From NCBI GenBank assembly GCA_036517335.1, contig DATDWX010000020.1:1-53365 (forward strand): a stretch of 53,365 bases of DNA, read 5' to 3'. The DNA comes from Minisyncoccota bacterium. GTDB lineage: Bacteria > Patescibacteriota > Minisyncoccia > Phycocordibacterales > UBA2100. Both the position numbers and the translations under genes were made by a program. Below are positions 36 through 53,365 of the stretch, one piece after another (position 1 is the first letter of the stretch; every line of letters starts with the position of its first letter). The notes beneath the pieces were generated by a model. It worked only from the letters and a program-made list of their open reading frames with translations, had not been told where the DNA came from and searched no databases.

Positions 36-120
36 CGCCCCCGCCCCGCCGCACTCTCTCCCATGCACATCTATTTCGCGGGGGTTTTTGAAGAATTGAA
101 TGGGCGGCGGGGCGGGGGCG
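36..120. repeat. Perfect 17-bp all-G/C inverted repeat bracketing 51 nt, just 5' of mod
   Basis: 36-52 CGCCCCCGCCCCGCCGC is the exact reverse complement of 104-120 GCGGCGGGGCGGGGGCG. The right arm ends 23 nt before the mod ATG at 144. Confidence 0.9.
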
Positions 121-143
121 GTTTGGGGTATACTGGATTCCAA

Positions 144-2210: not shown

Positions 2211-2212
2211 TT

Positions 2213-4729
2213 ATGTCAAGACGAACAAGCACCGGAATACAACGCTTTCATAATGAAAACCTCGTGCTTGAGGTAAGTGCGTCTGTGGATCGTCGGAAAT
2301 GGGATGAGAGTAAATACGAGCCATTTATAGATGAGTTATGCGGCACACGAGAATATCAAAAGGATGCAATCCGAGTCGCACTCCGGTATCTTTTGGGTGG
2401 AGAATATCGCAATTTGAGAGAGATCGCGGCAAAAAACTTTTCAAGCAATGAGGTATTGCGAGACAGATATGGAAGTAGCGAGAGCATGGAAAGAAATTTG
2501 CAGTTTCCGAACCAACTTTCGGCCTCACTTGATTTGGCGACAGGCACAGGCAAAAGCTATGTGATGTATGGCATTGCAGCGGTCATGCTCGCTGAAGGAG
2601 CAGTTGATCGCGTGCTTTTGCTTTGCCCATCAACAACAATTGAAGACGGCCTTTTGGAGAAATTTGAGGCATTGGCGGGAAATGCCGATTTGCGCGATCT
2701 TCTTCCGACCAGCGCGGTTGTGAACGCTCCTCGGATTATCAACGCGAGCGAAAGTATTGTTTCGGGAAGCATTTGTATTGAAAATTATCACGCAATTCTT
2801 GCTCATGTGCGCTCGTCTATTCGCGATAGCTTGCTTGGCAAAGGTGAACGAACGCTCATTCTCAACGACGAAGCACACCATGTTGCAAATGCGCCGACTG
2901 GCGAAGCCGGACGTTGGAAAAGTTTTTTGACAGATTCAGATTTTGGTTTTCGCTATATCATTGGCGTTTCCGGAACTTGCTATATTGGTAACGATTACTT
3001 TTCTGACGTAATTTACCGCTACTCTTTGCGTCAGGCGATGGAGCAGAGATTCGTAAAAAAAGTCCAGTACATAGCTGAAATGACCCGGACTAACCGGCCG
3101 GAAGAAGAAAAGTGGCAATTGGTACTTAATCGACACGAAGAAATCAGGCGTAAGCTCCGCCCGCACAAATTGCGCCCCCTTACAATCGTTATCACGCGCG
3201 ATATTCGCGGGTGTAAAGATGTTGCGGATAAGCTTAAGGCATTTTTAATGGAGCAAGCAGGTAAAAGCCCTGAGCAAATTGATGAACAAGTGCTTGTCAT
3301 CCATAGTGACGCACCCGATCTTGCACGCTTACCCAGCGTAAATAATGCGAATAGTAAAGTTGAATGGATTTTGTCCGTTTCTATGCTCAATGAAGGCTGG
3401 GATGTGAAGCGGGTATTTCAGATCGTACCTCACGAGAAAAAAGCGTTTGAAAGCAAGTTGCTCATCGCACAAGTGCTCGGTCGCGGTTTGCGAATACCAG
3501 ACAAGTGGACCGGTGAACAACCCGAGGTTACAGTTTTTAATCACGACAACTGGGCCGAGGATATTCGGCATCTTGTCTATGAAGTGATGGAATTTGAGAA
3601 ACGCATCCCGACCTTTCCGCTTCCTGAATCAGAGTTTAATTTTGAATTGATAAACATTGAGTACGACCCGAAAGCGTATGTTGAAACCTACCCAATGGAT
3701 AGTAAATATAAACTGTTCGCAAGAGGATATGTTGATCTTTCAACGGAAAAGCAGGTTGAGGAAGTAAAAATTGAGTTTGAAGAAGCCGATACTGGAGTGC
3801 GCACGCAGTGGAAAACTAAAATAAAACATAAGACCTACACTCCACGCGAAGTCGCTGAGGTTATGTATCAACGATTTGAGGATTTGTTAGAAGATGAAGA
3901 TAGAAAATATTACTCCAAACAATTTCCGGTTGAAAAACTTGAGGAAATAATCAAAAAATCACTTCGGGAGACTGACAACAAGGTGATAACCGACAGCATA
4001 CGACAAAAATTCCTACAGTCGCTTGGTACGCTTCAGCGTAAAGCGGCGCAAGTGGTGAGGTATGATTTCGAGCCAAAAAATTATTTTGCTGTTCTCACGA
4101 GCAGTCGCCCGCAAGAAACCGCCAGCGCATCGGAATTGAAAGGGGCAAAAACGCTCTACCTCACTGCGGCAACAGCGGAAAGTATGCCGGACGAGTACAA
4201 GGAATTTTATGACGAAGCAACCGAAAGTGGCAGCGGGTTCAAGTGTGTGCCAATCAGCAATCATTACGATTTCAAAACGCCGCTCAACGCCGTTATTGCG
4301 GATCACGAAAATGAGCGCCGATTTGTGAAAGAATTAATCAGTACGGATAACTTGTCACAGATTGACGCTTGGATAAAATCAACACCGATGGGATTTTACG
4401 AGATTGATTACTTCTGGAAAAAAGGAGAACACCCAAAACGTGGCAGGTTCAATCCCGATTTTTTCATCAAAACCGGCAAACTCATTTTGGTCGTTGAAAT
4501 AAAAGATGATGAGGAGATAAATGACCCATCGCCGGAGAACAAAAAGAAGTACGAATACGCTTTTGTACACTTTGACCGGATTAACGCGCATTTGAAAAAG
4601 AAGCGAGCGGGAATCAACTACAAATTCAATTTTCTTACGCCATCCGATTTCAGTAGTTATTTCCAAAGTATCAGAGACGGAAGCATTGTGAATTTCCGCT
4701 CAGCGTTGGATGTTGAACTGGGAAAATAA
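2213..4729 (+). CDS. res: Type III restriction endonuclease Res subunit (SF2 helicase + PD-(D/E)xK nuclease)
   Basis: Walker A LATGTGKSYV and motif II LNDEAHHV (DEAH). C-terminal nuclease-like NPDFF...VVEIKDD. 838 aa, immediately downstream of mod. Confidence 0.85.
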   Translation: MSRRTSTGIQRFHNENLVLEVSASVDRRKWDESKYEPFIDELCGTREYQKDAIRVALRYLLGGEYRNLREIAAKNFSSNEVLRDRYGSSESMERNLQFPNQLSASLDLATGTGKSYVMYGIAAVMLAEGAVDRVLLLCPSTTIEDGLLEKFEALAGNADLRDLLPTSAVVNAPRIINASESIVSGSICIENYHAILAHVRSSIRDSLLGKGERTLILNDEAHHVANAPTGEAGRWKSFLTDSDFGFRYIIGVSGTCYIGNDYFSDVIYRYSLRQAMEQRFVKKVQYIAEMTRTNRPEEEKWQLVLNRHEEIRRKLRPHKLRPLTIVITRDIRGCKDVADKLKAFLMEQAGKSPEQIDEQVLVIHSDAPDLARLPSVNNANSKVEWILSVSMLNEGWDVKRVFQIVPHEKKAFESKLLIAQVLGRGLRIPDKWTGEQPEVTVFNHDNWAEDIRHLVYEVMEFEKRIPTFPLPESEFNFELINIEYDPKAYVETYPMDSKYKLFARGYVDLSTEKQVEEVKIEFEEADTGVRTQWKTKIKHKTYTPREVAEVMYQRFEDLLEDEDRKYYSKQFPVEKLEEIIKKSLRETDNKVITDSIRQKFLQSLGTLQRKAAQVVRYDFEPKNYFAVLTSSRPQETASASELKGAKTLYLTAATAESMPDEYKEFYDEATESGSGFKCVPISNHYDFKTPLNAVIADHENERRFVKELISTDNLSQIDAWIKSTPMGFYEIDYFWKKGEHPKRGRFNPDFFIKTGKLILVVEIKDDEEINDPSPENKKKYEYAFVHFDRINAHLKKKRAGINYKFNFLTPSDFSSYFQSIRDGSIVNFRSALDVELGK

Positions 4730-22734: not shown

Positions 22735-22800
22735 AATGGCGCCAGAAACAATGGTGCGGGTGCGCGTCGCACGTCCCTCGGGGTGGTATGATGATTGATA

Positions 22801-24195
22801 ATGGTGAAGAAAATTCTCGCGGGTGTGCCGGCGTTGCTTGCGTTTGCCGTACTATTCTCTTCTCCCTCGCCACTCTACGCTGCTGAAATGGGCGTCAATC
22901 TCGCCGGCGCCGAATTTGGCAGCACCTACCCCGGCACATACGGCACCGACTATACATACCCGACCGCAAGCGAACTCGATTATTACAAGAGCAAAGGATT
23001 CACTCTCATTCGCCTCCCATTCATGTGGGAACGTGTGCAGCGATCGCTGGGCGGCCCGCTTGATCCGACAGAAATCGGTCGCATCCAAAGCTTCCTTTCG
23101 GCCGCGGGTACGCGCGGCATGCAGGTGGTACTCGACGCGCACAATTACGGCCGCTACGGACTCGGCACATTTTCCGATGTGACGTGGCATGGCAATATCA
23201 TCGGCTCTTCAGCTGTGCCTGTATCCACGTTCGCCGATTTCTGGACAAAAATGGCGAGCACGTTCAAGGGAAACCCTGCCGTTTTCGGGTACGATCTCTC
23301 CAACGAACCCCACGATATGGGCGCGTACTCGTGGCAGGCAGCTGCGCAAGCTGCAGTAAATGGCATCCGCTCGATAGATACCACGACGACCATCATCGTC
23401 GAAGGCGATTGCTGGTCGGGTGCGTGGACCTGGGGCTCGTGCAATGGCAATCTCACCATCAATGACTCTTCAAACAAGATCATCTACGAGGCGCACCAAT
23501 ATTTCGACGGCAACGGCTCGGGCTCGTATGCAAACGGGTATGACACCTCGAGTCAGAGCGTCGGTACGGCGCGCGTGATGCCCTTCATCAATTGGCTGCA
23601 GCAGCACAACTATCGCGGATACCTTGGCGAATACGGCGTACCCAAGAGCGATTCGCGCTGGTTCCCGGTGCTCGATGATTTCCTGGCAACACTAAGGCAG
23701 TACAACATCCCGGGCACCGTCTGGGCCGGAGGGCCGTGGTGGGGCAACTACATTCTTTCAGTAGAATCCTCTGGCGGTGTCGACAGCCCCGTGATGAGCA
23801 CCTTGGCAAAGTATCCGAGCACGAGCACTGCCACCTCCTCTCCTCCCGCGCCCATCCCCACCACGTTCGGGATCGGCACTCGCGTCAAGACCACTGCCAA
23901 TCTCAACGTCCGCAGCAAGCCTCATACCAGGAGCGGCAAGATCCTATGCACCCAGCCAAACGGTGCAACTGGCACCATTGTGGGAGGTCCCACATCAGCC
24001 CAAGGCTACACGTGGTGGCAGGTCAATTTCGACACGGGCTGCGACGGCTGGAGCGTGCAATCGTACTTAAGTGTAGTGCTCGCCGTAGCCCCGCCTTCAC
24101 CAGTCGCCGAGCTTGAATCCCAGCTGTCCAGTCTCTTGGCACAACTCACCGCGCTAAAAGAGCGCCTCACGGCCGCAGCGGGCGCGGTACGGTAA
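22801..24195 (+). CDS. Secreted GH5 glycoside hydrolase (cellulase-family) with C-terminal bacterial SH3 domain
   Basis: Signal peptide present. GVNLAGAEFG, LIRLPFMWERVQ, VVLDAHNYGRY, acid/base LSNEPHD, nucleophile LGEYGVP. SH3b-like NLNVRSKPHTRSGKIL...YTWWQVNF. TATGAT lies 8 nt upstream of ATG 22801. Confidence 0.8.
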   Translation: MVKKILAGVPALLAFAVLFSSPSPLYAAEMGVNLAGAEFGSTYPGTYGTDYTYPTASELDYYKSKGFTLIRLPFMWERVQRSLGGPLDPTEIGRIQSFLSAAGTRGMQVVLDAHNYGRYGLGTFSDVTWHGNIIGSSAVPVSTFADFWTKMASTFKGNPAVFGYDLSNEPHDMGAYSWQAAAQAAVNGIRSIDTTTTIIVEGDCWSGAWTWGSCNGNLTINDSSNKIIYEAHQYFDGNGSGSYANGYDTSSQSVGTARVMPFINWLQQHNYRGYLGEYGVPKSDSRWFPVLDDFLATLRQYNIPGTVWAGGPWWGNYILSVESSGGVDSPVMSTLAKYPSTSTATSSPPAPIPTTFGIGTRVKTTANLNVRSKPHTRSGKILCTQPNGATGTIVGGPTSAQGYTWWQVNFDTGCDGWSVQSYLSVVLAVAPPSPVAELESQLSSLLAQLTALKERLTAAAGAVR

Positions 24196-43806: not shown

Positions 43807-44874
43807 ATGTCTGAAATACTTGCCTTTTTTGTTGGTCTCCTGCAGGCAACACTCTCCCTCCTGGGCTTCGTCCAAGCCAACCCTACGCTTCCGCCAGAAC
43901 AGCGCGATCAAGCCGTACAAGTCGCGCAGCAGGCGATTACCACTGCGACGAATGCGATCGCGTCTAATCGAAATTCGCAGGCACAGGGATTTTCAGCTTC
44001 CCCGAGTTCGGGACCAGCACCGCTGACCGTGACATTTTCCAACATTCCGACCAGTGCGGCTGAAGAAAATATACACTTCGGCGACGGGAAGGAAGCTTCT
44101 AATGGATTAAATGGTTGGCCTAGCAGTGGTGTTGTCCATACGTACACTGTACCAGGTACGTATACCGTCACCGTAATAAGTGGCATGTCTAATGGTGAAA
44201 TAGGACGCCTTACCGTAACCGTTACCAGCGCAAACACTCAATCATTTATCTCCATCCCCGGCATGAGCAAATACACATATCGAGACTTGAGCTTTTCTTT
44301 CTGGTATCCGAGTACAGCCCAGTCGGGTTATTATTCCTCGAAAGAGCTCTCTTTCATGCCCTTTTTCGATAATTATTCTCTTGCCGCCGGTTTGTTCATC
44401 AAAGGGAAAGTTGGTGAAATTTTTTTCGTAATACAAGATGCACCCTCTCGCAGCATAACGGTTGGAGCGGGCGACACACTGTATCAAAGTGAACAAGAAC
44501 CGAACTTGAAGCCAGTCAAGTATTATTTCGATACGGATACTCATACGTGGATGAAGGCGTATCCGTACGGAGCACCAAGTGGAACATCATCTGCGACAAC
44601 GACTGCATACACGGGCGATAACACAATGGGCGGACTTCACATGTTCGCTGGACCTGAATATGGAACGTGGATTGTTCCAATTAGTGCGCAACGTTTTTTG
44701 GTGATTCACAGTGGCACTTCGTATTCGAAAGGCCAAAATACAGAATTAGGCAAACAGGCGTATGCGCTTGCAAAAACCATCCTCGCCACTGACCCATCTG
44801 TCGCCACGCCGGTCTCTGCTGCCGAGCAGATTAAAATCATCCAGGCGGAAAAGGATGCATACACGGTGCAATAA
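43807..44874 (+). CDS. Signal-anchored protein with PKD domain
   Basis: SASPSSGPAPLTVTFS...FGDG...VVHTYTVPGTYTVTV. Confidence 0.65.
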   Translation: MSEILAFFVGLLQATLSLLGFVQANPTLPPEQRDQAVQVAQQAITTATNAIASNRNSQAQGFSASPSSGPAPLTVTFSNIPTSAAEENIHFGDGKEASNGLNGWPSSGVVHTYTVPGTYTVTVISGMSNGEIGRLTVTVTSANTQSFISIPGMSKYTYRDLSFSFWYPSTAQSGYYSSKELSFMPFFDNYSLAAGLFIKGKVGEIFFVIQDAPSRSITVGAGDTLYQSEQEPNLKPVKYYFDTDTHTWMKAYPYGAPSGTSSATTTAYTGDNTMGGLHMFAGPEYGTWIVPISAQRFLVIHSGTSYSKGQNTELGKQAYALAKTILATDPSVATPVSAAEQIKIIQAEKDAYTVQ

Positions 44875-44908
44875 AATAAAAGAGGGCGGTGTGCTATAGT
44901 GGGCGGAT

Positions 44909-45142
44909 ATGAACGTGGTTACCATTCCCAAAAGAGCGTACGACGAGATCATCAAGCGTCAGACGCGTACCGAAGCTACCGTCAAGCATCTTGTACATGC
45001 GGTCAAGGAACTTTCGCAAGACGAGGAACTGCGGCCCGAAGTTGTCGCACGAATTGATCGTCATTCGCTAGCGATGGATGCTGGGAAAGGCAAGCGCCTC
45101 AAGACTGTAAGAGAAGTCCGGGCATACTTTCGCAGTCTATAA
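44909..45142 (+). CDS. Putative antitoxin of the RelE-like toxin
   Basis: 77 aa, ending 7 nt before the toxin gene. N-terminal VVTIPKRAYDEI. Confidence 0.4.
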   Translation: MNVVTIPKRAYDEIIKRQTRTEATVKHLVHAVKELSQDEELRPEVVARIDRHSLAMDAGKGKRLKTVREVRAYFRSL

Positions 45143-45148
45143 TCTTCG

Positions 45149-45427
45149 ATGGCCACACCTGCTCGCTACACGCTCGCAGTAGAGTCAGATGTCGAGCGTA
45201 TCTTTACATCGCTCAAGCGTAAGAATCCGGACGTATTTCGAGACGTAGAGGCCGGCATCTTAAAGATTCTCCGCAGCCCCGAGCTTGGCAAGCCTCTGCG
45301 TAACGTCTTGCGCAATCGTCGTCGTCTCCACATCGCAGGCTCGTTCGTGCTGATTTACGAGATTACAGCGAACGAAGTTCGCCTCCTCGATTTTGACCAT
45401 CACGATAAGATTTATAAAAAGCGCTAA
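45149..45427 (+). CDS. RelE/StbE-family toxin
   Basis: LRNVLRNRRRLHIAGSFVLIYEITANEVRLLDFDHHDKIY. Confidence 0.6.
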   Translation: MATPARYTLAVESDVERIFTSLKRKNPDVFRDVEAGILKILRSPELGKPLRNVLRNRRRLHIAGSFVLIYEITANEVRLLDFDHHDKIYKKR

Positions 45428-45492
45428 CCACCCTTTCCATTCCAGCCAGCGTACGCGGGGCAGTAAAATGGGGGATATGGTACAGTGCCGAC

Positions 45493-45711
45493 ATGGTAAA
45501 CATTTCCATCCCGAAATCAAAAATCACCAAAGCAGCGGGGGTAGTTATCCTTCCCATCAAAGAGTATCAGCGCCTGCTTGCCGGACGCTTTCCCGATGTG
45601 TACCTCACGGGCAAAGAGGCGGAAGATCTCGACAAACTGGTGGAAGAGGGACTGCGTGAGCATCGCGCCGGAATGACTCGTAAACTTCGCTCCTTAGCAG
45701 ATTTAGACTAA
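45493..45711 (+). CDS. Orphan antitoxin-like small protein
   Basis: 72 aa. ISIPKSKI...LPIKEYQRLL and a C-terminus resembling the 44909 product. No adjacent toxin. Confidence 0.35.
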   Translation: MVNISIPKSKITKAAGVVILPIKEYQRLLAGRFPDVYLTGKEAEDLDKLVEEGLREHRAGMTRKLRSLADLD

Positions 45712-45783
45712 CCATGCACATTTCTGAAAGAGAACAGCGTTTTGTTTTTGTATGTTGGTGATCACTCGATATATAAATAATTT

Positions 45784-46071
45784 TTACAGATGCCGGTTTT
45801 CTTGCGCGCCGTGGAAGATGCCCGTGATGATGAGTTCGGCGCGTGCGTCCGGAAGTTCGTACACGATGATGTAGGGAAGCCCCTTTACGACCCACTCAAA
45901 TGTGCCGCGCGCCTTGCCGGGGTGTCCGAGGTTAGGAAAGCGCGCGAGGTATTCTGCAACAACGAGAATACGTTCGATGACTGAATCTGCTGCAGCCGAG
46001 TTATCTTTTGCGATCCACGCATAAATCCTATCGAGGTCGCTGCGCGCTTCCTCGTCGAGGATGACTTTCAT
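45784..46071 (-). CDS. ParE-family toxin
   Basis: DLDRIYAWIAKDNSAAADSVIERI...FPNLGHPG...LPYIIVYEL...ITGIFHGAQ. Confidence 0.7.
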   Translation of the reverse strand: MKVILDEEARSDLDRIYAWIAKDNSAAADSVIERILVVAEYLARFPNLGHPGKARGTFEWVVKGLPYIIVYELPDARAELIITGIFHGAQENRHL

Positions 46072-46295
46072 GCACGACGTCGTGCGAAATATTCGCGCAC
46101 TTCTTTCAATGTCAGGAATTTCCGATTGAGATTCTTTCGCCGCCTTTCCACTTCCACAACCTGTTCATCCGAGAGCTGATACGTTGCAACACCTTGTTCC
46201 TCCATATCCATAAGTACACGAGCGGCCGCTTCCTGGCGTTCTTCCGGCCATGCACCGACACGTTTGATAACTTCCTCGAGAACTTTGCTTGTCAT
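46068..46295 (-). CDS. Putative ParD-like antitoxin
   Basis: 75 aa. Overlaps the ParE start by 4 nt. Confidence 0.45.
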   Translation of the reverse strand: MTSKVLEEVIKRVGAWPEERQEAAARVLMDMEEQGVATYQLSDEQVVEVERRRKNLNRKFLTLKEVREYFARRRA

Positions 46296-46379
46296 TTTTT
46301 CATTGTATCACATTCGCATGGATTCGGTTCAAAACCGCACCCACTTGCATTCTTTTCCAATACGATGCATAGTGCGGGG

Positions 46380-48113
46380 ATGAAAACATCCATTATTTCG
46401 GGGGTGGCTCTATTTAGCCTTTTAATAGCCCCTTTAGCTCTCGCCCAGACCTATTACCCGACATCCTACGGATGTGTGTCCGTGCCGGTCGGCATCTCGC
46501 TTGGCTCGCGCGGCAGCTCTGTACTGACGCTCCAGAACTTCCTCATTAGCCGCAACTATCCGGGTGGCGGCGCTTGGATGGCTACGAGCTACTTCGGCGC
46601 AGCCACGCAAGCGGCGGTGCGCAATTTTCAGCAGTCACAAAATCTTTTCCAGACAGGTATGGTGGATGCTACGACAGCCTCCGCGATCTCGCGCGTTTCG
46701 TGTCTACCTCTGGCCGGCCAGAGTGGTAGTGTTTTGGGCTCGGTATATACGACGCCCACGTATCCATACACGTACCCGACACCAACGCTCACGTATCCAC
46801 AATACCCCACGTACCCGAATTATTATGGTAATGCCCCGGTCATCACATCACTCTCGCAGAATACCGGCATGCCTGGCAATGTGGTAATCATCTACGGCGT
46901 CGGTTTTGACACTTGGAACAACACGGTCAATTTCGGCGGGACTATGCTCTCGAATATTTCGTCGCCAAACGGTACGTCGCTCACATTTACCGTACCCTCC
47001 ACGTACTATTCATACTCGCTTGCGGGTACTGCGGTACAACTCTCGGTCTCGGGCGGCCGTGGCACGAGCAACACACTCGGCTTCACCGTGTGGGGGACGC
47101 AGAATAATTGTGGCCTCTACGGGTATAATAACTGCGGCTGCAACAATTACTACCCCTATACCTACGGCTACAATAGCGCCGCTTCTTGTTTGCCGGCAAA
47201 CACCGCAACGCCCGTCATCAACTACCTCTCACCGACTTCTGGCCCAGTCGGCACTACGGTCACCGTTTACGGCTCCGGATTTTCTACCGCGGGCAACACG
47301 GTACACTTCGGCACAGGCATTATCACAAATCTTAATTCCCATGACGGCCGCTCTGTTTCGTTCATCGTCCCGAATACCTTGACCGGTTTCGGCAGCCAGC
47401 CCATCACTTTCTCGACGTACCAGGTGTCCGTTACAAACAACGTGGGCATCACATCGGGCAGTGTGCCCTTCACCGTGACAGGCCTTATTTCTAGCGGCGC
47501 ACCCGTCATCACGAGCGTGAATGGTCCGACCGCCCTCTCGACGGGAAGTAGCGGTCTTTGGACGGTCAACGTCAATACGGCGAGCAACACCTATCTCACG
47601 CTTTCTGTGAATTGGGGCGATCAAAATGTATACGGAGCGGCTTCCACGCAGCAAATGGCGTATGGCAGCGTACAACAAACAAACACTCTGACCCACACGT
47701 ACTACCAGAGCGGCACATACACGATCGTTTTCACCATCTCAAACAGCGCGGGTCAGAATAATAGCTTCACGACCACCGTCGTTGTTTCCGGTACGCAGGG
47801 CAATCTTGCGCTTTCTTACCTCTCACCGCAAAGCGGCCGCGCCCAGACCGTGATCGCGATCGTGGGAACGGGATTCTCGACTTCCGACAACATCGTTCGA
47901 TTCGGCGTGGGTGGCACGCAGCACGTGTCGAGTGTGGGTGGCACAACGATCTATTTTCAGGTTCCGCAGTATGTCTCACCGTGCGATGTATTAGCGGCGG
48001 GTTCTGTATGCGCACAATACCTCCAGCAGGTTTCCCCGGGCACGTATCCGATCTCGGTGTCCAATACATCGGGACAAACTTCGGGCATCCTGACCTTTAC
48101 GGTCGTGCAGTAG
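46380..48113 (+). CDS. Secreted wall protein: PG_binding_1 domain plus IPT/TIG and PKD-like repeats
   Basis: Signal MKTSIISGVALFSLLIAPLALA. GSRGSSVLTLQNFL...AATQAAVRNFQ. IPT-like PVITSLSQNTGMPGNVVIIYGVGF, PVINYLSPTSGPVGTTVTVYGSGF and LSYLSPQSGRAQTVIAIVGTGF. WGD...THTYYQSGTYT. Confidence 0.7.
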   Translation: MKTSIISGVALFSLLIAPLALAQTYYPTSYGCVSVPVGISLGSRGSSVLTLQNFLISRNYPGGGAWMATSYFGAATQAAVRNFQQSQNLFQTGMVDATTASAISRVSCLPLAGQSGSVLGSVYTTPTYPYTYPTPTLTYPQYPTYPNYYGNAPVITSLSQNTGMPGNVVIIYGVGFDTWNNTVNFGGTMLSNISSPNGTSLTFTVPSTYYSYSLAGTAVQLSVSGGRGTSNTLGFTVWGTQNNCGLYGYNNCGCNNYYPYTYGYNSAASCLPANTATPVINYLSPTSGPVGTTVTVYGSGFSTAGNTVHFGTGIITNLNSHDGRSVSFIVPNTLTGFGSQPITFSTYQVSVTNNVGITSGSVPFTVTGLISSGAPVITSVNGPTALSTGSSGLWTVNVNTASNTYLTLSVNWGDQNVYGAASTQQMAYGSVQQTNTLTHTYYQSGTYTIVFTISNSAGQNNSFTTTVVVSGTQGNLALSYLSPQSGRAQTVIAIVGTGFSTSDNIVRFGVGGTQHVSSVGGTTIYFQVPQYVSPCDVLAAGSVCAQYLQQVSPGTYPISVSNTSGQTSGILTFTVVQ

Positions 48114-48171
48114 CAGCCGCGCACGCCGCCCGCGTTCATAAATAACCGCGCAAAAATGCTACGATTGACGG

Positions 48172-48813
48172 GTGCGACGCTTGTTCAGGTGGTTGCTTCT
48201 ATCGCTTTTGTGTGCGCTCACGGTTTTTCTTGTTGTCCCACTCTTGATGCGGACATCGGTGTCGGGCAATTTGTATGATGCTGCCGATCTGGCGCCGCAA
48301 ACCGATGTCGCCATCGTTCTTGGGGCATCCGTCGCGCGCGGCGTGCCGTCGCCCGTGCTCGCCGCTCGCGCGCAAGAAGCAGTCGATTTATATCTGAAGG
48401 GAAGAGTACGAAAGATTTTGGTCACTGGAGACAGTGCTGCGCTCTCGCATGACGAAGTGACGCCAGTGCGAAAATACCTGATCACGTCGGGTGTCTTGGC
48501 AGAGGATATTTTTCTCGATCACGCCGGACTCGACACCTATAGCAGTATGTACCGGGCGCGCGCTGTCTTTGGAGCGACGAGCGCGACCATCGTGACGCAA
48601 AATTTCCATCTGCCGCGTGCGCTCTTTATTGCACGGGCGCTCGGCATTGATGCCGTCGGCGTCGTAGCCTCCGGTGGCACCAATTTTAATGACTATCTAC
48701 GAGAAATTCCGGCTTCATGGAAAGCACTTCTCGACCTGCTCACCAGGCGTCAACCTCAGTATCTCGGTGAGTCCATCCCACTCTCGGGAGACGGCCAGGC
48801 GACGTGGTATTAG
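48172..48813 (+). CDS. sanA: SanA/YdcF/ElyC (DUF218) family envelope protein
   Basis: N-terminal TM, then DVAIVLGASV, KILVTGD, DTYSSMYRA, VTQNFHLPRALFIA. Confidence 0.6.
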   Translation: MRRLFRWLLLSLLCALTVFLVVPLLMRTSVSGNLYDAADLAPQTDVAIVLGASVARGVPSPVLAARAQEAVDLYLKGRVRKILVTGDSAALSHDEVTPVRKYLITSGVLAEDIFLDHAGLDTYSSMYRARAVFGATSATIVTQNFHLPRALFIARALGIDAVGVVASGGTNFNDYLREIPASWKALLDLLTRRQPQYLGESIPLSGDGQATWY

Positions 48814-48915
48814 TGGGGATACTCACCGGTTTATCCCCAGCGTGCTGTGGGGACGCCTGTTTTCGAAAGGTGAATGGTGTTAGCATTGGTTCGTTCAGAA
48901 CACAGGTTTTATTTT

Positions 48916-49437
48916 ATGATAAAGCAACTCACCTCCGCCGCAGCCGCACTTATCTTGTTGACGTCGCCCGTTCTCGCCCTTGCTGCAGTCCAAACAACCC
49001 CCACCGCATGCCCAGTACTCGCACGCACTCTCGCGCGCGGCGCGAGGGGAGCCGATGTTTCCGCACTCCAAACGTTCCTGATAGCGCAAGGACTCCTTGC
49101 CAGCGGTTCTGCTACGGGATTCTTCGGCGCTCTCACACAGGGAGCAGTACAAAAGTTCCAAGCTTCACAGAATATCGTCTCCTCGGGCACTCCCGCCTCG
49201 ACCGGCTACGGCTCGGTAGGCAAAAAGACTCGCGCAGCCATCGGATTGGCCTGCACGCACACCAATTATTCCACCAACACTGCCTCGAGTTCTGCACCAA
49301 AAGCCGCTCCTCCCTCGTCGCTCCAACCAAACTGTCCTCTCGTCGCACTCCCCATCGGCAAGTCATGCACCGGCTCGTGGAAAGAAGTGAAAGACACCAA
49401 GGGCTGCACCGCTTCGTGGCAATGCGCTGCTAAATAA
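48916..49437 (+). CDS. Secreted peptidoglycan-binding (PG_binding_1) protein
   Basis: Signal peptide present. GARGADVSALQTFLIAQGLL...GFFGALTQGAVQKFQ. Confidence 0.65.
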   Translation: MIKQLTSAAAALILLTSPVLALAAVQTTPTACPVLARTLARGARGADVSALQTFLIAQGLLASGSATGFFGALTQGAVQKFQASQNIVSSGTPASTGYGSVGKKTRAAIGLACTHTNYSTNTASSSAPKAAPPSSLQPNCPLVALPIGKSCTGSWKEVKDTKGCTASWQCAAK

Positions 49438-49439
49438 TT

Positions 49440-52400
49440 ATGAATACACTACAACGTACCAAACGATTCCAGCTACTCATCCTCCTCATTGCAGCCATCT
49501 GTTCGCTTGTCGTTTTTAGTCCAACTAAATCGTCCGCTGCGTGTGGGACTTTGGCGAGCGGTGCCTCACTCACTCCCGGGCAATCCATCGCTTCTTGCAA
49601 CGCTAAATACACCCTTGCTTTCCAAACCGACGGCAACGTCGTGCTCTATGTAGGAAAAGTATTCACCCCAGAGTACGCGCTCTGGAGCACCAAGACAGAT
49701 GGCAAAACAGCAACCCTGCTTGCCATGCAAACCGACGGCAACCTCGTCCTCTACAACGGCTCGACCGCGCTATGGGCATCTGCTTCAAACGGCGGTACAT
49801 ACGGCAAATCCGGCTATCTCGCCGTGCAAGATGATGGCAACCTCGTCGTCTATGCGACTTCTGACGCCTCTGTTTTGTGGGCATCAAACACGATGCAAAA
49901 ACCGACTGAGCTCATAGACTCGGTCGCGAATGGCTACACATGGGGATACGCGCCAAGCATCATCAAGGTGGATAACACGTGGCACATGTATTATTGCAGT
50001 ACGGGGAATCCTGGGTGGGACGATGTACGCCACGCCACATCGCAGGATGGCACAAAATGGTCAGTTCCCGACAGAATTCTGTATACATCCGATATGATCA
50101 ACGAGCGCGCCTCGTGTGATCCGTCAGTCGTCTATTACGATGCGGGGGATGGGCCGTATTACTATTTGTTTTACTCGGGAAATCAAAAGGACGTGCAGAC
50201 GGTGAACTTGGTTGCTCGTTCTCAATATCCTGTCGGACCATTCTCGAAATTCACCACGCGAGGCACGTGGGAAATAAATCCGCCGGACCCGAAGGTCATT
50301 CTTTCGCCTGTGCATCTTGTTCCCGACCCGGCAGATAATGATTTTATCAACCCCATTTCATACGGTCTCGGCCAGCCTTCAGTGGTCGTGCATGACGGTG
50401 TATTGTACCAATGGTTTACTGACTCAACACGACAGTATCCAAGTGTGCCATGGGGTAACGATATTTATTTTGCCACCTCTACCGATCCGACCGTATGGTC
50501 CACGCGCACGCAGACGAATGTTGTCGGCGCTTCGGTGGATGTGAAGTATGACTCGCTTTCACAACAGTTTGTTATGTTTGGCGTGGGTTACACTGAAAGC
50601 ACCGGCGATTCGATCTTGGCTATACGAACGTCCAGCGATGGCATCACGTGGTCTGATCCAACGACTATTTTGTATGGTGCAGAGATGGCGCTTTTTTCAC
50701 ACAACCCCGGCGTCAGCGGCTCGCGCAAGGGAGAATTGATGCGCGACTTCGTTCTTGCGGCATATGGCGCTCCATACAATCTTAGGAATTATAATAACTG
50801 GGCGCAGTGGGACCTCTACGGGCAAACGATCAGCACCCTGGTTCGTGCCGCTCTTGCCTCCACAGTTACAACCCCAACACCACTCCCACTCCCCACCGGC
50901 GCTCCCACCCTCACACTCACTGCCAATGGAGTCACTAACCCCACCGTCGCCGAAGGCGATTCACACACGCTGGAGTGGTACAGTACCGATGTCTCATCTT
51001 GTACGCTCTCCTACACGCTGCCAGGCGTAATCACCGTAGGAACTATCTCACTAATACCAAATGCAGCAGGGAGCGGGACAGCGCAGGTCGGCGGTACTCG
51101 GACTATCAGTTGCCTCGGCACCGACGGCACGACTATCACAAAGACCGTAACAATCACGGTAACCCCCCCCATCCCCACCGCAACTTCAAACTATCCCCGC
51201 GGCTACATCGAATCCTCAACCTACGCGACTATCACCGGCTGGGCACAGGACAAAGACATTCCCGACTCACCAATTTACGTCCACTTCTATATCGACAAGC
51301 CGCCCACCGCTACCGACTTCTCTGGCTACGCGGGAATGGTGAGTGCCAAAGACTCCCGAGCCGATCTGTGTAACGAAATCGGCTCCTGCAACCACGCTTT
51401 CTTATTTACTGTTCCTGCAAAATTCAAAGACGGCCTAGCGCACACAGTCTATGCATACGGCATCGATGAAGATGGAGTCGGCGCTCACAATCTCGCGCTC
51501 ACACCATATTCAAGCGCCTCGAACACCTTCCAGTACCTCGCTGCTACCACGACCACATCCACCGCCACCCTCACCGCAATGAAGCAGTCCGTAGTCTTGG
51601 GCGAGACCGCCATCCTCGTATGGGAATCCACCAACACCTCATCGTGCACTGGAACCAACTTCTATACGGGAGGAAAGAGGTACGGGTTGGCGGGCCCCTA
51701 TCCGATAGCCACTACCACCTACTCCATCACCTGTGCTGGGAACGACGACACCTCGCCTACAGCAAGCGTGACCGTGGGGGTCGGCGCCGCAACCTCCAAC
51801 ATATTTTATCCCCGCGGCTACATCGAATCCTCAAACTACGCGACTATCACTGGCTGGGCGCAGGACCAAGACATCCCCGACTCACCAATTTACGTCCATA
51901 TTTACATCGACAAGCCACCCACCGCCACCGACTTCTCTGGCTATGTGGGAATGGTGAGTGCCAAAGACTACCGCAGCGATCTGTGTACTAACATCGGCTC
52001 CTGTAGTCATGGATACTCGTTCACTCTGCCGACCACATTCAAAGACGGCAAAACACACACTGTCTATGTCTACGGTATTGATGAAGACGGTATCGGCGCT
52101 CACAATATCGCGCTCACACCATATTCAAGCACCTCGAACACATTCAAATACCTCGCTCCCACCGGCGCCCCCACCATCACCTCCATCTCACCCTCCTCCG
52201 GCTCCGGCAGCGTCCCCATCACCATTACGGGTACGGGCTTCAACGCCACCCAGAACCTCGTCTTCCTAGGAGGAATCGGCGGCCTGTGCGGCCTCTCGTA
52301 CCTCACCTCGACCGCAAGCGGCACCAGTATCGCCTGCACGCTCGGCCTCGGTCGCTGGTCAACAGGCACCTACTCGCTCACTGTCAAGAACGTGACGACC

Positions 52401-53365
52401 GGCCTTACCTCTACCGGAGTGAACTTCACTGTCAACTCGTCGGAAGCCCTCTCGCCGGAAGTTCTCTCGATTACCACTGTCTCTCCGACCTCCGGCATCG
52501 CTGGCAGCACTCTAACCCTCACCGGAACCGGCTTCGACGCCAATACCTCCGTCCGCTTCAGCGGCACCTCTGGCGCGTACGCCACCGTCTCTTCGTACAC
52601 CTCGACATCCATTGTCGCGACTGTCCCCACGCTTGCTCCTGGATCATACAGCGTCTACGCAAGCAACGCCTCCGGCAATTCCGCTTCCCTCACGTACAGC
52701 ATCACCGCCTCCACCGGCGCCCCCACCATCACCTCCATCTCACCCTCCTCCGGCTCCGGCAGCGTCCCCATCACCATTACTGGCACGGGCTTCAACGCCA
52801 CCCAGAACCTCGTCTTCCTAGGAGGAATCGGCGGCCTGTGCGGCCTCTCGTACCTCACCTCGACCGCAAGCGGCACCAGTATCGCCTGCACGCTCGGCCT
52901 CGGCGGCTGGTCAACAGGCACCTACTCGCTCACCGTCAAGAACGTGACGACCGGCCTTACCTCCACCGGAGTGAACTTCACTGTTAGCGCGCCGAGAGTC
53001 CTCTCGATTACCACTGTCTCTCCGACCTCCATCGCCCCCACGGGCATCCTCACTATCACGGGCACCAACTTCGACACGACGAGCACCAACGTAGTCAGGA
53101 TCTCGGGCCCCCAGGGCGTCAACGTGACCGTCGCTTCGACCAACGGCACCACTCTCTTGGTTACTGTCCCCACGCTCCTTTCCGGCACGTACTCGGTGAG
53201 CGTTTCCAACGCCGCTGGCAGCATCGCCTACGCGCCCAGCTCCATCACCATTACCGCAAGCACCGCCTCCGGCGCCCCCACCATCACCTCCATCTCACCC
53301 TCCTCCGGCTCCGGTAGCGTGCCGATCGTAATCACGGGCACGGGCTTCAACGCCACCCAGAACCT
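49440..53365 (+). CDS. Giant secreted lectin / propeller / Ig-IPT repeat protein, 3' end beyond the window (>=1308 aa); not in the ORF track
   Basis: Hand translation found no stop in the phase of ATG 49440. Signal MNTLQRTKRFQLLILLIAAICSLVVF. Three QxDxNxVxY motifs (QTDGNVVLY, QTDGNLVLY, QDDGNLVVY). Asp-box-like SQDGTKWS and SSDGITWS. Duplicated YPRGYIESS modules. Repeated PTITSISPSSGSGSVPITITGTGF units. Confidence 0.8.
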   Translation, partial: MNTLQRTKRFQLLILLIAAICSLVVFSPTKSSAACGTLASGASLTPGQSIASCNAKYTLAFQTDGNVVLYVGKVFTPEYALWSTKTDGKTATLLAMQTDGNLVLYNGSTALWASASNGGTYGKSGYLAVQDDGNLVVYATSDASVLWASNTMQKPTELIDSVANGYTWGYAPSIIKVDNTWHMYYCSTGNPGWDDVRHATSQDGTKWSVPDRILYTSDMINERASCDPSVVYYDAGDGPYYYLFYSGNQKDVQTVNLVARSQYPVGPFSKFTTRGTWEINPPDPKVILSPVHLVPDPADNDFINPISYGLGQPSVVVHDGVLYQWFTDSTRQYPSVPWGNDIYFATSTDPTVWSTRTQTNVVGASVDVKYDSLSQQFVMFGVGYTESTGDSILAIRTSSDGITWSDPTTILYGAEMALFSHNPGVSGSRKGELMRDFVLAAYGAPYNLRNYNNWAQWDLYGQTISTLVRAALASTVTTPTPLPLPTGAPTLTLTANGVTNPTVAEGDSHTLEWYSTDVSSCTLSYTLPGVITVGTISLIPNAAGSGTAQVGGTRTISCLGTDGTTITKTVTITVTPPIPTATSNYPRGYIESSTYATITGWAQDKDIPDSPIYVHFYIDKPPTATDFSGYAGMVSAKDSRADLCNEIGSCNHAFLFTVPAKFKDGLAHTVYAYGIDEDGVGAHNLALTPYSSASNTFQYLAATTTTSTATLTAMKQSVVLGETAILVWESTNTSSCTGTNFYTGGKRYGLAGPYPIATTTYSITCAGNDDTSPTASVTVGVGAATSNIFYPRGYIESSNYATITGWAQDQDIPDSPIYVHIYIDKPPTATDFSGYVGMVSAKDYRSDLCTNIGSCSHGYSFTLPTTFKDGKTHTVYVYGIDEDGIGAHNIALTPYSSTSNTFKYLAPTGAPTITSISPSSGSGSVPITITGTGFNATQNLVFLGGIGGLCGLSYLTSTASGTSIACTLGLGRWSTGTYSLTVKNVTTGLTSTGVNFTVNSSEALSPEVLSITTVSPTSGIAGSTLTLTGTGFDANTSVRFSGTSGAYATVSSYTSTSIVATVPTLAPGSYSVYASNASGNSASLTYSITASTGAPTITSISPSSGSGSVPITITGTGFNATQNLVFLGGIGGLCGLSYLTSTASGTSIACTLGLGGWSTGTYSLTVKNVTTGLTSTGVNFTVSAPRVLSITTVSPTSIAPTGILTITGTNFDTTSTNVVRISGPQGVNVTVASTNGTTLLVTVPTLLSGTYSVSVSNAAGSIAYAPSSITITASTASGAPTITSISPSSGSGSVPIVITGTGFNATQN
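51192..51543 (+). repeat. Intragenic repeat, YPRGY-module core, copy 1 (approximate ends)
   Basis: TATCCCCGCGGCTACATCGAATCC... recurs 615 nt downstream with scattered substitutions. Confidence 0.8.
51807..52157 (+). repeat. Intragenic repeat, YPRGY-module core, copy 2 (approximate ends)
   Basis: Same module, encoding YPRGYIESSNYATITGWAQDQDIPDSPIYVHIYIDKPPTATDFSGY... Confidence 0.8.
52161..52712 (+). repeat. Intragenic tandem repeat, double-IPT unit 1 (552 nt)
   Basis: The first 272 nt differ at 7 positions (hand alignment) from 52713-52984. The second half is more divergent. Confidence 0.85.
52713..53267 (+). repeat. Intragenic tandem repeat, double-IPT unit 2 (555 nt)
   Basis: See unit 1. 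Confidence 0.85.
53268..53365 (+). repeat. Intragenic tandem repeat, unit 3 (truncated by the window end)
   Basis: TCCGGCGCCCCCACCATCACCTCCATCTCACCCTCCTCCGGCTCCGG... begins again. Confidence 0.8.

Follow-up and report, generated by a model that had tools for sequence, protein, structure and literature searches.

In MSL of M. smegmatis (PDB entry 4oit, deposited as "LysM domain protein"), a bacterial MMBL is coupled to a module that binds the wall; the MMBL has the same beta-prism II fold as the monocot plant mannose-binding lectins GNA (1msa) and gastrodianin (1xd5). These proteins consist of about 110 aa, or of a lectin plus LysM, and have neither an enzyme-like domain nor a stalk. LlpA consists of two tandem MMBL domains and a C-terminal extension (about 270 aa). 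In five-bladed glycoside hydrolases (GHs), the active site draws its residues from the first strand of each blade. A fusion of a B-lectin with an enzyme exists in Gram-positive bacteria in the form of albusin B (PMC6240691), in which the partner domain is a peptidase M15 rather than a propeller.

Here we describe a protein of more than 1,300 aa in which a single MMBL domain is followed by a five-bladed propeller and a long repetitive stalk. It is mostly assembled from known kinds of parts, and it is encoded at the end of a 53,365-nucleotide stretch of metagenomic DNA (the window). We lean toward reading it as an exported, stalk-borne, lectin-guided protein that binds, and probably cleaves, glycans.

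Gene, neighbors, and organism

The plus-strand frame that opens at ATG 49440 runs to position 53365 through 1,308 codons and zero stops, while the remaining five frames of the same interval contain 28, 31, 36, 44, and 92 stops, so that a chance origin is far excluded. Going upstream, the frame first meets a stop at TAA 49431, and no start lies between this codon and ATG 49440. The initial annotation had followed this open phase by hand and had attributed its absence from the list of open reading frames to the lack of a stop in the window; the computational translation, free of in-frame stops, agrees, and the list indeed omits frames that run off the end. The gene is real but incomplete. Its product has at least 1,308 aa in the window (27% of them Thr or Ser) and probably about 1,500 or more in full, for which the earlier description as "giant" is generous.

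The first 33 residues (49440 to 49538) form a predicted Sec-type signal peptide, in keeping with the signal or anchor proposed earlier. This call, made by eye and from hydropathy, is based on an n-region (MNTLQRTKR), a 17-residue hydrophobic core (FQLLILLIAAICSLVVF), and a c-region (SPTKSSA/A); when the whole protein was scanned, the 19-aa Kyte-Doolittle mean exceeded 1.6 only in this stretch.

Upstream on the same strand lie genes for an exported protein with PG_binding_1 and PKD/TIG-like repeats (46380 to 48113; 577 aa), a DUF218 (SanA-like) protein (48172 to 48813; Pfam 5.9e-23), and a small exported PG_binding_1 protein (48916 to 49437; 173 aa), the two PG_binding_1 lengths being as called on L001, an independent assembly of the locus. 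This is the wall-protein and SanA neighborhood that had been described. Only 2 nt separate the stop of the small PG_binding_1 gene from ATG 49440, so the two genes are probably cotranscribed; no terminator-like site was found in the gap. Exported GH5 and GH63-like enzymes are also encoded in the window.

Obg is 70 to 75% identical to homologs in Kaiserbacteria, Nomurabacteria, and Paceibacterota MAGs, and by this sequence measure the bacterium is placed among Kaiserbacteria/Paceibacterota-like CPR (Parcubacteria-type) organisms. The affiliation is in line with the episymbiont that the initial annotation had considered as a possibility, and the lifestyle is probably that of a tiny symbiont.

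Lectin and propeller in the N-terminal head

Residues 34 to 152 (49539 to 49895) form a B-lectin/MMBL (beta-prism II) domain. Scanned alone, it scored 46.7 bits with Pfam B_lectin (gathering cutoff, 32.4), and in the PDB it matched pyocin L1 (1.4e-18) as well as MSL, GNA, and gastrodianin (2.7e-15 for MSL, up to 1e-9). The best sequence matches were LlpA/putidacin L1 and pyocin L1. A Cys35/Cys53 pair is conserved, and the three QxDxNxVxY sites, common to MSL, GNA, and gastrodianin, are all intact (QTDGNVVLY at aa 62, nt 49623; QTDGNLVLY at aa 97; QDDGNLVVY at aa 130), as the initial annotation had recognized in assigning the region to the bulb-type lectins. Among the matches, bacterial MMBL homologs are often fused to M23, GH25, trypsin, subtilase, patatin, or amidase_2 domains.

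The following region (aa 153 to 480; 49896 to 50879) had been proposed to be a beta-propeller because of two SxDGxxW motifs. Both Asp-box-like motifs are conserved (SQDGTKW at aa 201, with S201-D203-W207; SSDGITW at aa 398, with S398-D400-G401-W404), and the AF2 model has five blades (pLDDT, 89; pTM, 0.90). In a Foldseek search of the PDB with this model, the top matches were enzymes throughout, led by GH117 (1.3e-10) and followed by GH62, GH43, GH130, and GH32. The fold is shared with these families and with the GH143/BT_1020 N-terminal propeller (TM, about 0.55 to 0.64; E, 1e-10 to 1e-8), although identity is only 10 to 18% and the two Asp-box-like motifs set the window family apart. The family profile found GH43 entry 3kst in the PDB (1.4e-5), and all 10 of 10 family members matched Pfam GH43 weakly. 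The GH43-like propeller expected from profile searches therefore holds for the fold and for weak profile similarity, but not for formal membership, as the domain scored 20.1 bits against a GH43 gathering threshold of 32.2 and lay under every Pfam gathering score. It is a divergent, distant relative of GH43/32/117/62/130/143.

Several residues are invariant in the family alignment: Y170/P172, C226-D227-P228-S229, Y308-G309, D367/K369, and N422/G424. When blades and strands are assigned from the DSSP list of the model, these residues map to the strand predicted to come first in each blade, and the Asp, Lys, Asn, and Tyr residues among them are kept across very distant lineages. In the HMM alignment with 3kst, this family has Ala or Gly (YAPS/YGPS) at the position of the ADP-motif Asp of that chain, the presumed catalytic base of GH43, so that a GH43-type mechanism is unlikely; the propeller could be noncatalytic. 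The invariant Asp of CDPS instead aligns with the EDP-motif Asp of a GH130 enzyme. In GH130, an invariant Asp next to Glu was the only candidate acid (Cuskin et al., PMC4599007), and, matched by motif, the aligned residue would be that Asp.

Five-bladed GHs are paired with CBM or lectin modules, as is the propeller here. In other lineages, members of the propeller family are fused to ricin-B, F5/8-C, PKD, FG-GAP, PG_binding_1, or T9SS sorting domains, and fusion to the YPRGY/GWA module of the stalk, described below, also occurs in two further proteins (P0004 and P0013).

Stalk repeats and assemblies of the locus

The head is followed by a Pro/Thr linker (PLPLPTGAP) and a Thr/Ser-rich segment of about 86 aa (aa 490 to 575; linker and segment, 50880 to 51164), which recurs at aa 706 to 783 (51555 to 51788). 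Two Cys residues are invariant in the alignment of these segments. They had no Pfam match, and their profile gave only nonsignificant matches in the PDB (CD4 Ig domain, E of 0.06); we presume that the fold is Ig-like. Each segment precedes a YPRGY/GWA module (aa 580 to 705, 51177 to 51554; aa 785 to 908, 51792 to 52163). The YPRGY motif lies at aa 585 and aa 790, and the two repeated units noticed earlier are thus in place. The modules are 77% identical in protein, and the DNA repeat is 84% identical.

The initial annotation did not recognize the YPRGY module, and neither do the databases: none of 40 diverse family members matched a Pfam or NCBIfam model, and no solved homolog was found by sequence or by significant PDB fold match. 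A profile search recovered 7,191 representative proteins at E of ≤1e-3, most with 2 to 9 tandem copies, and AF2 modeled module 1 as a beta-sandwich (pLDDT, 85; pTM, 0.80). YPRGY/GWA is a large domain family that neither Pfam nor NCBIfam has named.

The remainder is an array of IPT/TIG domains with at least 4.3 copies in the window (Pfam TIG, 111.7 bits, 1.7e-32, five stretches; NCBIfam choice-of-anchor Z repeat, 52.2 bits against a cutoff of 30). A first pair (52164 to 52715) comprises type a (aa 909 to 1007) and type b (aa 1008 to 1092); a second (aa 1093 to 1277; 52716 to 53270) repeats it with a period of 552 nt, its first 300 nt being 95% identical in DNA. Of the three or more double units claimed earlier, two are complete, and the third is represented by its first 31 aa (aa 1278 to 1308; 53271 to 53365) before the window ends.

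Over 14.9 kb, L001 is 99.96% identical to the window up to position 53030, and the first ~1,212 aa are identical in L001, which comes from another sample set, and in a further assembly (L002). Over the final ~330 nt, the window and L001 disagree, and the arrangement diverges past aa ~1212, so the order and number of TIG domains at the far end depend on the assembly. Extension of the contig, as had been proposed, carries the frame to 1,339 aa in L001, where it is still open. All contigs found for the locus end within near-identical TIG DNA repeats, and for this reason the 3' end is missing. By analogy with a relative's fragment, the missing C terminus may run from TIG through a Cys-Ig domain to a short amphipathic helix.

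Head exchange and possible roles

A close relative (P0003/P0124; [quoted passage not shown] an NCBI MAG protein) has the same signal peptide, MMBL lectin, two two-Cys/YPRGY units, and TIG pairs in the same order, and is likewise truncated within the TIG array. Its lectin is 69% identical and its stalk 89% identical over aa 486 to 1018, but aa 155 to 485 are nonhomologous: exactly the propeller is replaced, by an unrelated domain of about 360 aa that lacks Pfam and PDB sequence matches. Head domains are therefore swapped between close relatives. Another protein (P0010) combines the same lectin with a GH42-like barrel and PG_binding_1.

We propose that Sec exports the protein, which then loses its signal peptide, and that the lectin, with three mannose/rhamnose-type sites, and the propeller together form a modular head, the second domain of which can be exchanged while lectin and stalk are retained. 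The head would sit at the distal end of the beta-sandwich stalk; its position at the cell surface is guessed from the architecture, since the anchor is unseen with the C terminus missing. Through the lectin, the head would dock onto a glycan that contains mannose or rhamnose, either in a partner or prey envelope or in an environmental polysaccharide, and the propeller would bind and most likely cleave a neighboring glycosidic bond, which could serve adhesion, sugar scavenging, or both. The same-strand exported PG-binding neighbors with the 2-nt gap and the GH5 and GH63-like enzymes support this reading, which would make the protein a plausible tool to bind or digest foreign glycans.

The host-attachment device proposed initially may fit the evidence too, but a lectin-guided glycan-degrading enzyme fits it at least as well. 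If attachment of a small cell to its host were the sole job, the propeller of this lectin-tipped fiber would be noncatalytic, as the Ala/Gly at the presumed GH43 base would allow. The intact lectin sites, a long Ig/TIG stalk typical of adhesins, and the CPR lineage agree with such a role, and head exchange would be consistent with shifts in host specificity. In the literature, lectin-type proteins on the surface of Patescibacteria are also counted among candidate attachment factors (PMC12911398). We nevertheless consider a pure adhesin rather unlikely, given that the invariant first-strand residues persist across very distant lineages, the family is paired elsewhere with CBM-type modules as enzymes are, and its top structural neighbors are all enzymes; moreover, the host is not known and no anchor is seen. 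An antibacterial weapon, secreted and lectin-targeted to lyse a competitor or prey through its envelope polysaccharide, is improbable. The L-type pyocins and putidacin as best lectin matches, the plentiful MMBL-lytic enzyme fusions among homologs, and albusin B (PMC6240691) speak for it, yet LlpA-type proteins need two tandem MMBL domains and a short C-terminal extension, the NCBIfam LLB model scored 66.6 against a cutoff of 275, and a stalk of >800 aa is foreign to diffusible bacteriocins. The second head domain is also not recognizable as a cell wall hydrolase, and the neighborhood shows no evident gene for immunity or lysis.

Abundant Thr and Ser, repetitive beta-sandwich domains, and the operon-like arrangement with peptidoglycan-binding proteins would suit a probably glycosylated S-layer, sheath, or fibril subunit that uses lectin and propeller for self-assembly or wall attachment. 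We think this very unlikely, as known S-layer or SLH-type modules are absent, head exchange among close relatives would be unusual for a lattice-forming subunit, and the functional domains lie at the far N terminus, as in adhesins and enzymes. Least credible is a chimeric or misjoined frame from a repeat-rich metagenome assembly. The disagreement past aa ~1212, the contig ends in repeats, and variants that lack most of the second two-Cys segment (P0002) or carry local error-like differences (P0001) are what such an artifact might leave; against it, the first ~1,212 aa recur in L001 and L002, every domain has independent homologs, and P0003/P0124 preserves the order of lectin, Ig/YPRGY units, and TIG domains.

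Reading frame, predicted signal peptide, and lectin

The frame that begins at ATG 49440 on the forward strand stays open to the end of the window (49440-53365), and computational translation gave 1,308 codons with zero stops, in agreement with the hand translation of the initial annotation. The five alternative frames of this interval contain 28 to 92 stops each. By our own arithmetic, based on a stop density of ~2.3% per codon in the other two plus-strand frames, the chance of 1,308 consecutive open codons is near 1e-13. The gene is missing from the ORF list because ORFs running off an end go unlisted. There is an in-frame TAA at 49431, after which 49440 is the first ATG, and the upstream gene stops 2 nt before it.

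All of the motifs quoted in the initial annotation were recovered by script where it had placed them, and its reading of the domains as a lectin, a beta-propeller, and IPT repeats is supported by profile, PDB, and model evidence. Among the profile matches that it anticipated, B_lectin and IPT/TIG scored above threshold; those to GH43 and BNR propeller profiles fell below.

Residues 1 to 33 are the sole strongly hydrophobic stretch of the protein and comprise a basic n-region, a 17-residue hydrophobic core, and an SSA|A c-region, a layout that points to a predicted Sec signal peptide. The segment that follows (aa 34-152) is a B-lectin/MMBL domain in which all three of the predicted sugar-binding motifs (QxDxNxVxY at aa 62, 97, and 130) are intact, forming a threefold repeat that aligns to solved MMBL lectins. 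When aa 34-155 was scanned alone, Pfam PF01453 scored 46.7 bits against a gathering threshold of 32.4; in the whole-protein scan B_lectin reached 23.3 bits, under the cut-off. The PDB homologues of this domain include pyocin L1 (1.4e-18), the Mycobacterium smegmatis lectin 4oit (2.7e-15), gastrodianin, and snowdrop-type agglutinins.

We considered and rejected a lectin-like bacteriocin of the LlpA type (NCBIfam NF033557), which matched at 66.6 bits against a cut-off of 275 and only in part (profile positions 135-217). LlpA proteins have two tandem MMBL domains and a short C-terminal extension, whereas the protein described here has a single MMBL domain. MMBL domains in phage tail proteins also appeared among the matches, which prompted us to consider a phage tail-fibre origin; this was dropped because there are no phage structural genes nearby.

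A divergent five-bladed propeller

The AlphaFold (AF2) model of aa 153-480, built from an alignment of this domain and nine homologues that the first search had returned, has ~20 strands, with a pLDDT of 89 and a pTM of 0.90. The best PDB neighbours of the model in Foldseek were all five-bladed enzymes, led by GH117 (1.3e-10) and followed by GH62, GH43, GH130, and GH32, with TM scores of 0.55 to 0.64 and identities of 10 to 18%. Judging from the model and its Foldseek matches to GH43, GH62, and GH117, the domain shares the five-bladed beta-propeller fold of GH43. The Salmonella sialidase 2sil, which we take to be six-bladed, scored lower against the model, with a TM of 0.49 compared with 0.55 to 0.64 for GH117, GH62, and GH43.

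Profile searches pointed in the same direction at lower scores. The domain scored 17.5 to 20.1 bits against Pfam GH43 (PF04616), short of the gathering threshold of 32.2, and 15.9 to 21.1 bits against the BNR/Asp-box sialidase-like family (PF13088), short of 31.4. Pfam GH43 was matched weakly by 10 of 10 members of the propeller family (best E of 2.8e-11), the BT_1020 N-terminal propeller by 8 of 10, GH32N by 7 of 10, and GH130 (PF04041) by 1 of 10, at 1.1e-5. Searched against the PDB, the profile of the family alignment found GH43 3kst at 1.4e-5, GH130 9fj8 at 0.0028, and 7fip at 0.15.

As the alignment shows, family members share two Asp-box-like motifs (S201-D203-W207 and S398-D400-G401-W404). 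Active-site residues of five-bladed glycoside hydrolases are located on the central strands. In the propeller family, every predicted blade opens with a strand that carries invariant residues (Y170/P172, C226-D227-P228-S229, Y308-G309, D367/K369, and N422/G424), the blades having been assigned by hand from the list of modelled strands and not from 3D coordinates. In one HMM alignment (20.3 bits, posterior accuracy of 0.82), the Asp of the 3kst ADP motif, which we take to be the GH43 catalytic base, aligns to the Ala/Gly of a YAPS/YGPS motif in the family. The presumed GH43 base, expected on the opening strand of blade I, is thus not matched; of the GH43 catalytic set, which also includes an Asp modulator and a Glu acid, this comparison covers the base residue only, and it comes from that single low-scoring alignment.

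In GH130 enzymes, an invariant Asp beside a Glu is the sole candidate catalytic acid (PMC4599007). The invariant Asp227 of the CDPS motif aligns with the Asp of the EDP motif in the GH130 chain, and this motif correspondence would make Asp227 the counterpart of the GH130 candidate acid. We treat the possible GH130 relation of the propeller as a lead and not as membership.

The propeller family spans metagenome assemblies from CPR to Deltaproteobacteria-labelled ones (P0029). Elsewhere its members are joined to GWA modules (the YPRGY modules described below; P0004 and P0013), ricin-B, F5/8-C, PKD, FG-GAP, or PG_binding_1 domains or to a T9SS sorting domain. The closest named homologue of the protein comes from a Candidatus Paceibacterota MAG. 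For this relative, P0003, identity is 69% over the lectin and 89% over the region corresponding to aa 486-1018. Between them, aa 155-485 (window 49902-50894), which is exactly the propeller, has no counterpart in P0003 or P0124. The unrelated replacement domain of P0003 (~360 aa) had no Pfam match and no PDB sequence match. In another protein, P0010, a lectin of the same subtype (58% identity) occurs together with a GH42-like barrel, GWA-like modules, PG_binding_1, and a further lectin. By these sequence comparisons, the second head domain is exchanged between relatives in a cassette-like manner. Scanning genome contigs with the N-terminal 587 aa produced pattern matches and no relative, and encoding contigs for P0003 and P0001 are not on record.

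Stalk modules and the missing 3' end

Behind the propeller, two Thr/Ser-rich segments with two invariant Cys residues (aa 490-575 and 706-783) alternate with two YPRGY modules (aa 580-705 and 785-908; nt 51177-51554 and 51792-52163, forward strand). The two-Cys segments had no Pfam match and no significant PDB match in profile searches, and an Ig-like fold is therefore only presumed. Downstream of the P0270 fragment, a JGI homologue, contig L086 encodes a signal-peptide protein (1521-3119, forward strand) in which a zincin-like HEIMH motif precedes two-Cys domains of the same, presumably Ig-like kind (LDYTWSSANGSTYSSTYKGDLSYCG), which indicates that two-Cys modules are common to several exported proteins of such organisms.

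The YPRGY modules matched nothing in Pfam, NCBIfam, or PDB sequences, and none of 40 diverse family members matched any Pfam or NCBIfam model. An exhaustive search of 1.84 billion representatives (50%-identity clusters) with a seven-sequence profile found 7,191 representative proteins at E<=1e-3, of which 3,313 also passed E<=1e-10; among the best 148 of the 7,191 matches, tandem copies mostly number 2 to 9 per protein. A word-index search with the 118-aa module returned one fragment only, the matches listed in such searches being ~0.55 to 1.75 times the query length. The module was modelled as a beta-sandwich that includes a single short helix (pLDDT of 85, pTM of 0.80), for which no PDB fold was a significant match (best E of 2.4e-3, TM of at most 0.45, to generic FN3/Ig folds). 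One match, at 2e-6, was to a siphovirus protein that is uncharacterised. Polar residues predominate among the conserved positions (GW.D, D, R.D, H, H, D, N), which hints that the module is not just a spacer and carries a candidate binding site, perhaps for a ligand or a metal. In P0130, a 2,231-aa protein of another, high-GC lineage that came from the search of representatives, GWA modules and B-lectin domains alternate three to four times in the N-terminal part; the ~1,400-aa C-terminal part had no Pfam match at E<=0.001.

The remainder of the protein (aa 909-1308) is an IPT/TIG array in which Pfam PF01833 matched five stretches, with 111.7 bits against a threshold of 20.9; the NCBIfam choice-of-anchor Z repeat also passed, with 52.2 bits against a cut-off of 30. 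The array consists of two a/b pairs and the first 31 residues of a further unit. At the DNA level, a repeat search showed that the pairs are 95% identical over 300 nt at a spacing of 552 nt, that a 103-nt segment opening each unit is present in three copies (90 to 96%), the third cut by the window end, and that the Ig/YPRGY units repeat at 84%. Tandem Repeats Finder reported none of these because the 552- to 615-nt period exceeds its limit. Metagenome contigs scanned with the TIG pair gave distant matches only (29 to 50% identity).

The gene for the SanA-like neighbour is present on seven contigs, all of which stop inside the TIG array, and none of the assemblies that we found reaches the 3' end of the gene. 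Among the seven, the independent assembly L001 (ENA ERZ27254767, 53,496 nt) retains the most downstream DNA. It matches the window at 99.96% identity as far as 53030 and then diverges inside the TIG repeats (window 53030-53365 versus L001 14860-15285), extending the frame by 31 codons to 1,339 aa, still open. The database variants P0001, P0002, and P0124 likewise break off in the repeats or are rearranged there, with deletions or error-like changes in P0001 and P0002. As the assemblies disagree within the repeats, the number and order of TIG units are uncertain, and the repeat number in the last ~330 nt of the window is unreliable.

The last unit of L001 is a distinct, c-type TIG. P0270, which is 64% identical, has this same c-type TIG followed by a two-Cys domain, a 25-residue amphipathic helical tail, and a stop; its C-terminus has neither LPXTG nor a TM segment. 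Similar tails close P0121 (65% identical to the YPRGY module), several further GWA-module proteins, and the exported GH5 enzyme encoded in the window at 22795-24195 (forward strand). By analogy, the full protein may extend to ~1,500 aa or more and end in such a tail.

Amphipathic tails directly before the stop recur on exported modular proteins (P0270, P0121, P0201, P0140, and P0256), for example, YAAALASIRSQLAAIEALITQLLGGR, YASLASVLAAIQAILEKMLGQ, and NLANALAALQSALQFFINTFGR. The tail of the GH5 enzyme, which has a signal peptide and an SH3-like domain, is ELESQLSSLLAQLTALKERLTAAAGAVR. Such tails may be a shared C-terminal signal for tethering or oligomerisation.

Possible roles and genomic setting

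The best-supported model, which we regard as plausible on the predicted domains and fold, is an exported, stalk-borne protein that would be guided by its lectin, would bind glycans, and would probably cleave them. The main rival is a pure adhesin, a reading in which the head would bind and not cleave; the Ala/Gly at the presumed base position sits comfortably with it, and the enzyme neighbours of the propeller and the invariant residues on its predicted first strands fit a cleaving head better. We consider three other explanations less likely. An albusin-like antibacterial enzyme would hardly need so long a stalk, which diffusible bacteriocins lack. A structural surface-layer subunit would share the repeats of the stalk, but exchange of a head domain among close relatives would be unusual for it. 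An assembly artefact would agree with the disorder within the TIG repeats; up to 53030, L001 carries the same frame.

B-lectin domains joined to enzymes are documented (PMC6240691), and lectin-type surface proteins of Patescibacteria have been discussed as attachment factors (PMC12911398), so that this kind of protein is already known. What is new is the particular architecture, the divergent propeller with a predicted Ala/Gly where, in one HMM alignment, GH43 would have its presumed base Asp, and the assignment by profile of the YPRGY module to a very large family without a name in Pfam or NCBIfam.

CPR bacteria, Parcubacteria among them, are regarded as living attached to other cells or relying on them. 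To our knowledge, almost none has been cultured, and we know of no identified contact molecules. With its three-site lectin, enzyme-like propeller, and long stalk, the gene is a concrete, testable candidate for one. We speculate, while thinking it unlikely, that the protein is a stalked fibre with which a Parcubacteria episymbiont recognizes its host or prey, and whose lectin and enzyme head is recombined between relatives to retarget it to the envelopes of different partners, much like phage receptor-binding proteins. If this were true, the propeller would represent an undescribed glycoside hydrolase family whose catalytic arrangement differs from that of GH43, the widespread unnamed GWA beta-sandwich would be an undescribed glycan- or Ca-binding module, and an undescribed C-terminal amphipathic tail would tether or oligomerise exported proteins in wall-bearing ultra-small bacteria. 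Should the protein prove to be no more than a common secreted glycosidase that carries accessory modules, its value would be confined to annotation. Formal description of two recurrent uncharacterised modules, the propeller family and the YPRGY family with its >7,000 representatives, could be worthwhile.

The genes upstream on the same strand encode, in order, an exported protein with PG_binding_1 and PKD/TIG-like domains, a DUF218/SanA-like protein, and a small PG_binding_1 protein; farther upstream are ParE-type toxins, an MFS transporter, and a DEAD-box helicase. No terminator-like site was found between the small PG-binding gene and ATG 49440, and a promoter/terminator scan of 44800-49700 gave results at chance level. 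The window also encodes GH5, GH63-like, and GT20 proteins, a P-type ATPase, and a type III restriction-modification pair. Its Obg is 70 to 75% identical to those of Candidatus Kaiserbacteria, Nomurabacteria, and Paceibacterota MAGs.

The type III restriction-modification-like pair (window 63-4729, forward strand) consists of an N6/N4 DNA methylase (715 aa) and, directly after it, a ResIII helicase-type protein (838 aa). GC content there is ~44 to 45%, compared with ~54 to 57% for most of the window, a difference suggestive of acquired DNA. Window 44900-46100 (L001 6738-8124), which separates the PKD protein from the PG-binding/TIG protein, contains two oppositely oriented ParE_toxin-family genes, each next to a small ORF, and a Gp49/HTH pair follows obg. 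These look like toxin-antitoxin-like cassettes among envelope genes.
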